In this document: piece by piece, positions 25,727-28,930 of the stretch | Layout: each line of letters starts with the position of its first letter | Position numbering within the stretch: the stretch's first letter is position 1 | Assembly (NCBI RefSeq): GCF_003334305.1 | Contig: NZ_QOWS01000024.1 | Direction: 5' to 3' (one strand) | Source of the DNA: Escherichia coli | GTDB taxonomy: Bacteria > Pseudomonadota > Gammaproteobacteria > Enterobacterales > Enterobacteriaceae | DNA length: 64,000 nt | Program-made: the position numbers and the translations under genes | The notes under the pieces: model-generated | Seen by the model: the letters and a program-made list of their open reading frames with translations, nothing else | Database searches by the model: none | Told to the model about the DNA's origin: nothing

Positions 25727-26179
25727 ATGGCAGAAACCAAAATTGTTGTTGGTCCGCAGCCGTTCAGCGTAGGAGAAGAGTACCCGTGGCTGGCGGAGCG
25801 TGACGAAGACGGTGCGGTAGTCACCTTTACTGGTAAGGTGCGCAACCATAACCTGGGCGACAGCGTCAAAGCATTAACCCTCGAACACTATCCGGGGATG
25901 ACTGAAAAAGCACTGGCAGAAATTGTTGATGAAGCGCGTAACCGCTGGCCGCTGGGGCGCGTCACTGTGATTCACCGCATCGGGGAATTATGGCCGGGCG
26001 ATGAAATCGTTTTTGTCGGTGTCACCAGTGCGCATCGCAGCAGTGCGTTTGAAGCCGGGCAGTTTATTATGGATTATCTCAAAACCCGCGCACCGTTCTG
26101 GAAGCGCGAAGCCACGCCGGAAGGCGACCGCTGGGTTGAAGCTCGGGAGAGCGATCAGCAGGCGGCAAAACGCTGGTAG
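25727..26179 (+). CDS. moaE: MoaE, molybdopterin synthase catalytic subunit
   Basis: 150 aa ORF. Confidence 0.93.
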   Translation: MAETKIVVGPQPFSVGEEYPWLAERDEDGAVVTFTGKVRNHNLGDSVKALTLEHYPGMTEKALAEIVDEARNRWPLGRVTVIHRIGELWPGDEIVFVGVTSAHRSSAFEAGQFIMDYLKTRAPFWKREATPEGDRWVEARESDQQAAKRW

Positions 26180-26185
26180 TTTTTT

Positions 26186-26218
26186 GTTAGCCGGATAAGG
26201 CACCGCTGCGTCCGGCAA
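26186..26218. repeat. REP-like palindromic element after moaE
   Basis: GTTAGCCGGATAAGGCACCGCTGCGTCCGGCAA. Confidence 0.5.
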
Positions 26219-26315
26219 TTTCACCGCTCAGTACATGCGTTTACGCTGCGTCGATGCACAGCCTCATCATTTTGCAGTATCCTTAAGATATTCCTTATAT
26301 CTTCAGGAGATCGTC

Positions 26316-27020
26316 ATGGACAGATTCCCACGTTCTGATTCAATCGTACAACCCCGGGCTGGCTTGCAAACTTATATGGCGCAAGTCTATGGCTGGATGA
26401 CCGTTGGCTTGTTGCTGACCGCATTTGTTGCCTGGTATGCGGCTAATTCCGCGGCCGTGATGGAGCTGTTGTTTACTAACCGTGTCTTTTTAATCGGTCT
26501 GATCATCGCGCAATTAGCATTGGTTATTGTGTTATCAGCGATGATTCAAAAGCTGAGCGCAGGTGTAACGACGATGCTCTTTATGCTTTATTCGGCGCTG
26601 ACGGGTCTTACGCTTTCCAGTATATTCATTGTCTATACCGCTGCTTCTATCGCCAGTACTTTCGTCGTTACTGCCGGGATGTTCGGCGCAATGAGCCTGT
26701 ACGGTTACACCACGAAGCGCGATTTAAGTGGCTTTGGCAATATGCTGTTTATGGCGTTAATCGGCATTGTGCTGGCATCGCTGGTCAACTTCTGGCTGAA
26801 AAGCGAAGCATTGATGTGGGCAGTTACCTACATCGGCGTGATTGTCTTTGTCGGATTGACGGCGTATGACACTCAGAAATTGAAAAATATGGGTGAGCAG
26901 ATTGATACCCGCGACACGTCGAACCTGCGCAAATATTCCATTCTTGGCGCGTTAACCTTGTATCTGGACTTCATCAACCTGTTCCTGATGTTGCTGCGAA
27001 TTTTTGGCAACCGCCGTTAA
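26316..27020 (+). CDS. ybhL: YbhL, BAX-inhibitor-1 (TMBIM)-family inner-membrane protein
   Basis: 234 aa from MDRFPRSDSIV; 7 predicted TM segments. Confidence 0.88.
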   Translation: MDRFPRSDSIVQPRAGLQTYMAQVYGWMTVGLLLTAFVAWYAANSAAVMELLFTNRVFLIGLIIAQLALVIVLSAMIQKLSAGVTTMLFMLYSALTGLTLSSIFIVYTAASIASTFVVTAGMFGAMSLYGYTTKRDLSGFGNMLFMALIGIVLASLVNFWLKSEALMWAVTYIGVIVFVGLTAYDTQKLKNMGEQIDTRDTSNLRKYSILGALTLYLDFINLFLMLLRIFGNRR

Positions 27021-27038
27021 TTCTTTTTCACCATCAAT

Positions 27039-27068
27039 ATCCCGGCCATGTGTCGGGATTTTTTTTCT
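27039..27068 (+). terminator. Rho-independent terminator after ybhL
   Basis: Hairpin ATCCCG...CGGGAT followed by T8. Confidence 0.65.
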
Positions 27069-27224
27069 TACTAAAAACGACACTTAACAAGTACCAGGTA
27101 TAAAATACGCCTTATGGCGAGCGGAAGCGTTTTCCGTATCCATAAATACAAAAGTATTTTGTATGCGTGGTTTTAAATTTATTGATGGTGAATATTAATA
27201 TTTTTTCTAAGGACAACTAAAAGA

Positions 27225-27938
27225 ATGGAATCATATTCACAAAACAGCAATAAATTAGATTTTCAGCACGAGACCAGGATATTAAACGGTATATGGCTCA
27301 TTACCGCTTTAGGTTTGGTGGCAACCGCAGGACTGGCCTGGGGAGCTAAGTATCTCGAAATTACGGCAACCAAATATGATTCACCAACAATGTATGTCGC
27401 CATAGGGTTATTATTAGTTTGTATGTATGGCTTAAGTAAGGATATCAACAAGATAAATGCCGTCATCGCAGGCGTAATATATCTGTTTTTACTCTCTTTG
27501 GTGGCGATTGTCGTTGCAAGTTTAGCTCCTGTACCTGCCATTATCGTCGTGTTCAGCACTGCGGGCGCGATGTTTTTAATCAGTATGCTGGCCGGTTTAT
27601 TATTTAATGTTGATCCTGGTTCTCACCGTTTTATCATTATGATGACGTTGACAGGTTTGGCCCTGGTGATCATCATGAATGCCGCATTAATGAGTGAACG
27701 ACCCGTTTGGGTAATAAGTTGCTTAATGATTGTGTTATGGTCAGGCATTATCTCGCATGGACGAAATAAGCTCCTTGAATTGGCTGGGAAATGCCATAGT
27801 GAAGAGTTGTGGAGTCCGGTTCGTTGCGCTGTTACAGGTGCATTAACACTCTATTACTATTTTATCGGCTTCTTTGGGATACTTGCCGCGATAGCTATAA
27901 CGCTTGTCTGGCAAAGGCATACGCGTTTTTTTCATTAG
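27225..27938 (+). CDS. ybhM: YbhM, BAX-inhibitor-1-family inner-membrane protein (paralog of YbhL)
   Basis: 237 aa hydrophobic ORF. Confidence 0.85.
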   Translation: MESYSQNSNKLDFQHETRILNGIWLITALGLVATAGLAWGAKYLEITATKYDSPTMYVAIGLLLVCMYGLSKDINKINAVIAGVIYLFLLSLVAIVVASLAPVPAIIVVFSTAGAMFLISMLAGLLFNVDPGSHRFIIMMTLTGLALVIIMNAALMSERPVWVISCLMIVLWSGIISHGRNKLLELAGKCHSEELWSPVRCAVTGALTLYYYFIGFFGILAAIAITLVWQRHTRFFH

Positions 27939-27973
27939 TCGTAAATGCAGATACTAAAGAACTTAACTAAACT

Positions 27974-28930
27974 TCACATCGCCGCTTCATTTTTCGCCCG
28001 TAGCTTCTTCGCCTGGCTTTCCAGTAGCAGGTAACAGATCAGCGCCAGCAGCAGCGGGATAAAGTAATACAGGACGCGATAAGCGAGTAGGGCGGCGATA
28101 ATTGTGCCTTTGGATGTATGCTCCCCAGCCAGTAGCGCGATAAACACCGCTTCCAGCACACCGATCCCCGCCGGAATATGCACGATGACGCCAGCAATAC
28201 TACTAACCAGTAACACGCCCAGTACAAAGAAATAGTTCACGCTTTGACCAAGTAACAGCCAGATAATCGCCCCCATTACCATCCAGTTAACGCTGGAAAT
28301 CAGCATCTGAGCGAGGGCGAATTTCCATGAAGGCAGCACCAGTTTTTGCCCTTTGATGGTCATATGGCGGTGCTTCGCGAAAGCGCAAAACCACAAATAA
28401 ACCGCGATAATCATCAGTAAGCCAATGCCGAGAATACGCAGCGTAGTTTGATCGACATACCAGTGATCCGGCAACTCCACCACGCCTGCGGTAAAGATAA
28501 TCCCTGCCAGTAAAATATAGCCCAGCCAGTTGGTGGTAATACTGAGCGAGAAAATCCGCGTAATAGTGCTGCCCGGTAACCCTAGTCGGGAGTACAAACG
28601 ATAGCGCATACCAATGCCGCCGACCCAGGTACTGAGCGTCAGGTTGAAGGCGTAGCAGATAAACGACACCAGCATCACCTGGCGCTTCGCCAGTTTGTGA
28701 CCGCAGTAAAAGCGGGCGAGCAGGTCATAGCAGCCGTAAATCAGATAGCTGACGACCACCAGCCCGACCGCACTAAGCAGCGCAACGCGATTGTAGTCGC
28801 GGATGACCTTCCAGACCTCTTCCCAGTCCACTTTTTTGGCGTAGACCACCAGCAACACAATCACCGCGATAAAAAACAGCCAGGTGAGGATCTTCTTTGC
28901 TAAGCGCCAGCGCGGGTGTGATTTACTCAT
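27974..28930 (-). CDS. ybhN: YbhN, inner-membrane protein (UPF0104 / LPG-synthase-TM-like)
   Basis: 318 aa polytopic ORF; last gene of ybhP-clsB-ybhN. Confidence 0.88.
   Translation of the reverse strand: MSKSHPRWRLAKKILTWLFFIAVIVLLVVYAKKVDWEEVWKVIRDYNRVALLSAVGLVVVSYLIYGCYDLLARFYCGHKLAKRQVMLVSFICYAFNLTLSTWVGGIGMRYRLYSRLGLPGSTITRIFSLSITTNWLGYILLAGIIFTAGVVELPDHWYVDQTTLRILGIGLLMIIAVYLWFCAFAKHRHMTIKGQKLVLPSWKFALAQMLISSVNWMVMGAIIWLLLGQSVNYFFVLGVLLVSSIAGVIVHIPAGIGVLEAVFIALLAGEHTSKGTIIAALLAYRVLYYFIPLLLALICYLLLESQAKKLRAKNEAAM

Follow-up and report, generated by a model that had tools for sequence, protein, structure and literature searches.

The best-described bacterial relative of the proteins considered here is BsYetJ of Bacillus subtilis, a TMBIM/BI-1 pH-sensitive Ca2+ leak channel of solved structure (4PGR and related PDB entries), in which a di-aspartyl pH sensor composed of Asp171 and Asp195 (TM6/TM7) is required for the pH-gated Ca2+ leak (PMC8589314). 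The same fold family has three paralogues in E. coli, of which YccA, encoded elsewhere in the genome, is one; YccA and the mitochondrial TMBIM5 are BI-1-fold regulators of AAA proteases, and YccA is bound and degraded by FtsH/HflKC (PMC9379554). For the other two paralogues, YbhL and YbhM, a literature search found no functional data. Their genes are neighbours in the window, which is the whole stretch of 64,000 nucleotides of Escherichia coli DNA that was analysed. The reading favoured here, with a probability of roughly 0.6, is that ybhL is the conserved core gene of this locus and that ybhM is an accessory, ybhL-derived gene of a variable slot, with a role that has probably changed. The features of the locus are as follows:

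26255 to 26283, plus strand: candidate ybhL promoter, TGCACA-17-TATCCT, in the 136-bp moaE-ybhL spacer (hexamers as given in PMC3946193)
26316 to 27020, plus strand: ybhL, encoding 234 aa, a conserved BI-1/YetJ-type seven-TM inner-membrane protein (Pfam Bax1-I, RefSeq)
27021 to 27224, plus strand: ybhL-ybhM spacer, AT-rich (GC 0.33), reported to bind H-NS
27039 to 27067, plus strand: intrinsic terminator of ybhL, with an 8-bp G+C-rich stem, a 5-nt loop and a T8 tail (terminator scan)
27077 to 27106, plus strand: candidate ybhM promoter, ACGACA-16-TATAAA (27077 to 27104) or the same with -18-TAAAAT (promoter scan, 9 of 12 matches)
27225 to 27938, plus strand: ybhM, encoding 237 aa, a divergent BI-1-like seven-helix membrane protein (Pfam Bax1-I, AlphaFold2)
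27974 to 28930, minus strand: ybhN, convergent, the right-hand edge of the variable slot (ORF list and annotation)

The first-pass annotation had described a tandem pair of diverged seven-TM proteins of the BI-1 family at 26316-27938, an interval that runs exactly from the start of ybhL to the stop of ybhM. That these are two neighbouring same-strand genes of one family is borne out by the open reading frames, by Pfam and by RefSeq, which gives the gene order as moaE, ybhL, ybhM, ybhN and names both products 'Bax inhibitor-1/YccA family protein'; the pair is real, and both members are already known and annotated K-12 genes of a known family. The match to E. coli is 100% over positions 26100-28000 of the window, and part of this stretch or more was found in 5425 of 5426 complete E. 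coli genomes. No known RNA families were found in 26000-28000, the nearest being the Moco riboswitch and one sRNA match, both farther upstream. The stop codons of ybhM and ybhN are separated by 35 bp, and no hairpin lies between the two genes, an inverted repeat being absent from 27930-27990.

The terminator that had been proposed for ybhL is well founded: the hairpin at 27039-27059, followed by eight T, has a predicted folding energy of -11.6 kcal/mol (z = -3.15), none of 200 shuffled sequences folded as well, and it is kept in every allele compared, from K-12 to strains that carry a third gene, X, and to other genera. Past the terminator, the ybhL-ybhM spacer differs from the spacer of strains with X, and no remnant of X was found in it by blastn or by six-frame HMM search, the terminator region alone being shared. 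The claim of a promoter-like region for each gene agrees with genomic SELEX, which located RpoD-holoenzyme sites in both the moaE-ybhL and the ybhL-ybhM spacers and for which constitutive RpoD promoter hexamers were given for both genes (PMC3946193); both hexamer sequences are found in the window and match the candidates listed above, although the ybhL candidate at 26255-26283 was not called by a consensus promoter scan. The further claim that both upstream regions are AT-rich holds for the ybhL-ybhM spacer (GC 0.33, compared to 0.52 for the whole window) but not for the moaE-ybhL spacer (GC 0.47). In Table 3 of the same study, the ybhL-ybhM spacer is also marked HNS, which denotes binding of H-NS in vitro (PMC3946193). 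The two genes are homologues that have diverged, and they are plausibly transcribed as separate units. Because ybhL is followed by a terminator and ybhM lies behind a promoter of its own, in a spacer that is AT-rich and binds H-NS in vitro, ybhM is probably silenced or conditionally expressed.

Compared to BsYetJ, the two proteins of the locus stand very differently. YbhL matches the entire Pfam model Bax1-I (PF01027; 1.1e-62, model positions 1-207 of 207) and aligns with BsYetJ (4PGR) over residues 34-231 (E 1e-8). Both sensor aspartates are kept, D185 and D218 of YbhL being equivalent to D171 and D195 of BsYetJ, within a conserved YD...LYLDFINLF context. Relatives of YbhL were found in 590 genome stretches, the best 80 of which, from across the Enterobacterales, encode proteins 71-100% identical to it; in the Enterobacterales loci gathered by this genome scan anchored on YbhL, each a species representative, ybhL was found in 80 of 80. 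YbhL is a conserved, strongly constrained enterobacterial BI-1 member of the YetJ type and, because the di-aspartyl pH sensor is retained, it is by homology most likely a pH-sensitive cation (Ca2+/H+) leak channel of the inner membrane.

YbhM is also a member of the family: the HMM search on which the first-pass annotation had staked this membership gave a match to Bax1-I at 2.7e-19 (model positions 3-205 of 207). The two sequences are as clearly diverged as had been claimed, with 24% identity between YbhL and YbhM over 151 aa (E 5e-11). Seven transmembrane segments are likewise supported for both, for YbhL by its alignment with the seven-TM BsYetJ and for YbhM by an AlphaFold2 model (mean pLDDT 91.4, pTM 0.87) with seven helices at residues 6-43, 54-70, 79-100, 103-127, 134-154, 159-192 and 198-235. 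The structural neighbours of this model in AFDB50 all belong to the BI-1/YccA family, and its TM-scores with YbhM-like proteins of Salmonella, Kluyvera and Superficieibacter are 0.8-0.94. A sequence search of the PDB with YbhM returned nothing even at E <= 10, and fold searches of the PDB with the model did not return BsYetJ. YbhM shares with BsYetJ its Pfam family and a predicted seven-helix bundle, but pairwise BLAST detected no similarity between them, and a motif alignment places H178/G179 and Y212 of YbhM at the positions of D171 and D195. The seven-helix core is conserved in YbhM, as are several family-invariant positions, among them F117, N152 and G144. In the reading favoured here, YbhM keeps its seven-helix fold and remains under purifying selection, with both aspartates of the pH-gated leak replaced. 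Because both of these residues are replaced, YbhM is probably no longer a YetJ-type channel; it probably has a changed role in the inner membrane, exerted through protein-protein or protein-lipid interaction. Neither YbhM nor X was matched in NCBIfam or PADLOC. Loss of the aspartates does not in itself prove loss of activity, since YccA, with E and S in their place, has a defined function.

The example of YccA also offers an alternative, in which YbhM, with its BI-1 fold, would serve FtsH/HflKC as a substrate and also inhibit it, and would so modulate membrane-protein quality control. Besides the precedent of YccA and TMBIM5 as regulators of AAA proteases, most YbhM-like proteins resemble YccA in having no Asp-Asp pair: their TM6 residue is E or some other amino acid than Asp, and their TM7 residue is small or non-acidic. 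The N-terminal tail of YccA is the point at which its degradation by FtsH starts, and in YbhM it is the N-terminal cytoplasmic tail that varies most. Nevertheless, the TM6 residue of E. coli YbhM is not acidic, and the pairwise similarity of YbhM to YccA is undetectable (YbhL shares 27% identity with YccA over 113 aa). Neither protein of the locus belongs to the YccA equivalog: NF007765 was not matched by YbhM and gave 23.3 bits with YbhL against a cut-off of 353, while a YccA sequence used as a positive control scored 454 bits. A YccA-like action is very unlikely.

The distribution of ybhM gives a second contrast with ybhL. In most of the 80 species-representative Enterobacterales loci, ybhM is absent and the stop codons of ybhL and ybhN are approximately 50-110 bp apart; ybhM is also missing from one genome labelled E. 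coli. The cargo of the slot between ybhL and ybhN differs between genera. The fullest Escherichia array, complete in E. albertii, consists of ybhL, X, ybhM, a further gene Z, a DUF3969 gene and a 73-aa gene, and the number of BI-1-like genes per Escherichia array reaches four with ybhL included. Among E. coli strains the number of such copies downstream of ybhL varies, and one locus (L005) has three. The window, which is K-12-like, retains only ybhM of the BI-1-like copies downstream of ybhL. Among 5426 complete E. coli genomes, X is carried by 750 (14%) and ybhM is present in more than 99%, which makes it nearly core-like within the species. The DUF3969 gene and its small neighbour were found in 29 genomes. 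No literature on DUF3969 was found, and the small ORFs beside YbhM-like genes in Escherichia and Pseudocitrobacter had no match in NCBIfam, PADLOC or PHROGs. Carriage by phages or plasmids was considered and rejected: there was no phage match, and the apparent plasmid matches were mis-labelled chromosomal records or ybhL itself. On the proposed mechanism, ybhM would be one survivor of a BI-1-like array between the convergent ybhL and ybhN.

Evolutionary rates set the two genes apart as well. By pairwise NG86 estimates from 10 alleles, in which recombination is ignored, dN/dS is 0.24 for ybhM versus 0.015 for ybhL, 0.017 for moaE, 0.032 for ybhN and 0.029 for clsB, so that the constraint on ybhM is approximately 16-fold weaker than that on ybhL, with a dS similar to that of the flanking genes. 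Taken segment by segment, the omega of ybhM is 0.37 or lower and nowhere above 1. The N-terminal segment has a raised dS, which suggests that ybhM alleles are mosaic. From E. coli to E. albertii, the identity is 99% for YbhL and 85% for YbhM. The gene ybhM is a fast-evolving, Escherichia-restricted accessory gene in a variable chromosomal slot.

These data bear directly on the first-pass annotation's interpretation of the locus, that ybhL and ybhM are a retained, sub-functionalised pair. In such a model, the duplicates would divide an ancestral BI-1 function (for example, protection from envelope stress under different conditions), and both would still act as BI-1-type channels or modulators. 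The part of it that describes diverged BI-1 homologues with plausibly separate transcription stands; retention as a pair and partition of a function do not. Such a division of labour would fit the match of both proteins to Bax1-I, the position of the genes as same-strand neighbours, each with a promoter candidate and with a terminator after the first, the purifying selection on ybhM (omega 0.24) and its presence in nearly all complete E. coli genomes. It does not fit the most frequent state of the slot in Enterobacteriaceae, in which ybhM is missing and ybhL works alone, nor the variable copy number in Escherichia, the loss of both di-aspartyl residues from YbhM, the 16-fold weaker constraint, or the product of the gene named ybhM in Salmonella, which is merely 31.5% identical to E. 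coli YbhM. The two copies are not co-conserved across taxa under comparable constraint, either in the 80 loci or in dN/dS. Sub-functionalisation is thus unlikely, and the patchy presence, copy-number variation, weak constraint and aspartate loss point instead to an accessory gene with a changed function.

Another explanation is decay, with ybhM a silenced, functionless relic of a disintegrating array that is kept in E. coli by drift and linkage. Its AT-rich composition and H-NS site, the disappearance of the other array members from most E. coli genomes, the loss of family-defining residues from YbhM, and the natural alleles of ybhM that were found with an IS5 insertion, an in-frame deletion or the truncations seen in Shigella are all in keeping with such a fate. 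However, a dN/dS of 0.24, with all segments at or below 0.37, is well under neutrality; the seven-helix core and F117, N152 and G144 are conserved; and in 5376 of the 5426 complete genomes the alignment covers 80% or more of the query, a stretch spanning ybhM (measured as alignment coverage), ybhM being a CDS according to RefSeq in the full-length matches listed. A relic is accordingly the least likely of the explanations discussed here.

As for the origin of ybhM, a search of 1.84 billion representative proteins with YbhM gave 88 matches at E <= 1e-3, and its full-length relatives outside Escherichia are 25-35% identical to it. The profile of alignment A1, when run against a set of 5.8 billion proteins, returned mostly E. 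coli YbhM alleles and a few extra E. coli variants or fragments. The YbhM-like subfamily is rapidly diverging and is so far confined to a handful of genera of Enterobacteriaceae. Its most probable source, judged from sequence comparison, is tandem duplication of ybhL: the YbhM-like profile matches enterobacterial YbhL at 80-104 bits, with YbhL of Enterobacteriaceae scoring highest at 90-104 bits, and in pairwise BLAST YbhM-like proteins score 28-63 bits with YbhL, compared to 20 bits or less, or nothing, with YccA and BsYetJ. Most of the YbhM-like genes examined are directly downstream of ybhL; exceptions include one in a Salmonella island downstream of guaA and a Superficieibacter copy near vgrG. 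Weighing against this origin, some BI-1 proteins that are 26-44% identical to E. coli YbhL match the profile as strongly as enterobacterial YbhL does. The third-position GC content of ybhM (GC3 0.437 versus 0.600 for ybhL) makes the gene look foreign in composition, and could reflect acquisition from outside instead of tandem duplication.

The genomic neighbourhoods of the relatives raise one more explanation, according to which the YbhM-like proteins (YbhM, X, Z, the Salmonella 'ybhM' product and their relatives) would be BI-1-derived factors of the inner membrane that neutralise, or make the cell tolerate, toxins which type VI secretion systems (T6SS) deliver and which depolarise membranes by forming pores. 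The slot between ybhL and ybhN would then be an island of orphan immunity genes. Two membrane-protein genes follow the YbhM-like gene of the ybhL slot in Salmonella, and a second module, in the island downstream of guaA, repeats this three-gene order; all four membrane proteins match the NCBIfam model of Sip4 (E 8.5e-9 to 3e-4), an inner-membrane protein that confers immunity to Ssp4, a T6SS pore-former of Serratia (PMC12669606). Also present in the guaA island are an IS element, a Sel1-repeat protein and an orphan gene of the T6SS immunity family TsiV (Pfam, 1.8e-34). The Superficieibacter YbhM-like gene is 3.3 kb upstream of vgrG, and the slot of Enterobacter sp. BIGb0383 contains a PLD-like protein and three Sel1/DUF6396 lipoproteins, a content that we take to resemble a Tle5/Tli5 module. 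Paralogue arrays, presence/absence variation and raised dN/dS, all of which are seen at ybhM, are typical of immunity genes and of orphan immunity loci. Against these likenesses, YbhM has the BI-1 fold and is not Sip4-like, and the similarity of its Salmonella neighbours to Sip4 is remote, at 21-36 bits compared to a curated cut-off of 240. No effector gene was seen directly beside a YbhM-like gene in the loci examined, the 864-aa protein encoded between the Superficieibacter YbhM-like gene and vgrG matches no family, and nothing T6SS-related neighbours the E. coli locus in the window. The omega of ybhM exceeds 1 in no segment, PADLOC and NCBIfam are empty for YbhM and X, the literature search found no link of BI-1 proteins to T6SS immunity, and the sharing of a hot-spot location may be coincidence. 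An immunity-like role for ybhM is therefore a speculative lead, improbable on the present evidence though less so than the other alternatives.

The accessory-gene reading of ybhM changes what is to be expected of the locus, since the pair itself, being two annotated K-12 genes of a known family, adds little alone. YbhL would be a good candidate for a bacterial pH-dependent cation leak, while ybhM would be a lineage-specific, fast-evolving offshoot that no longer has the channel residues and is placed at a chromosomal hot spot. The two genes should not be treated as redundant. Phenotypes of ybhM should be looked for in hns-derepressed backgrounds and in interbacterial competition, beyond envelope stress. 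If the T6SS link that appears in Salmonella and Superficieibacter is functional, YbhM-like proteins would form a new class of proteins for immunity or tolerance, and the BI-1 fold would gain a new role in bacteria; and if the immunity reading is true, it would be a bacterial parallel to the eukaryotic BI-1 that guards against the pore-former Bax.

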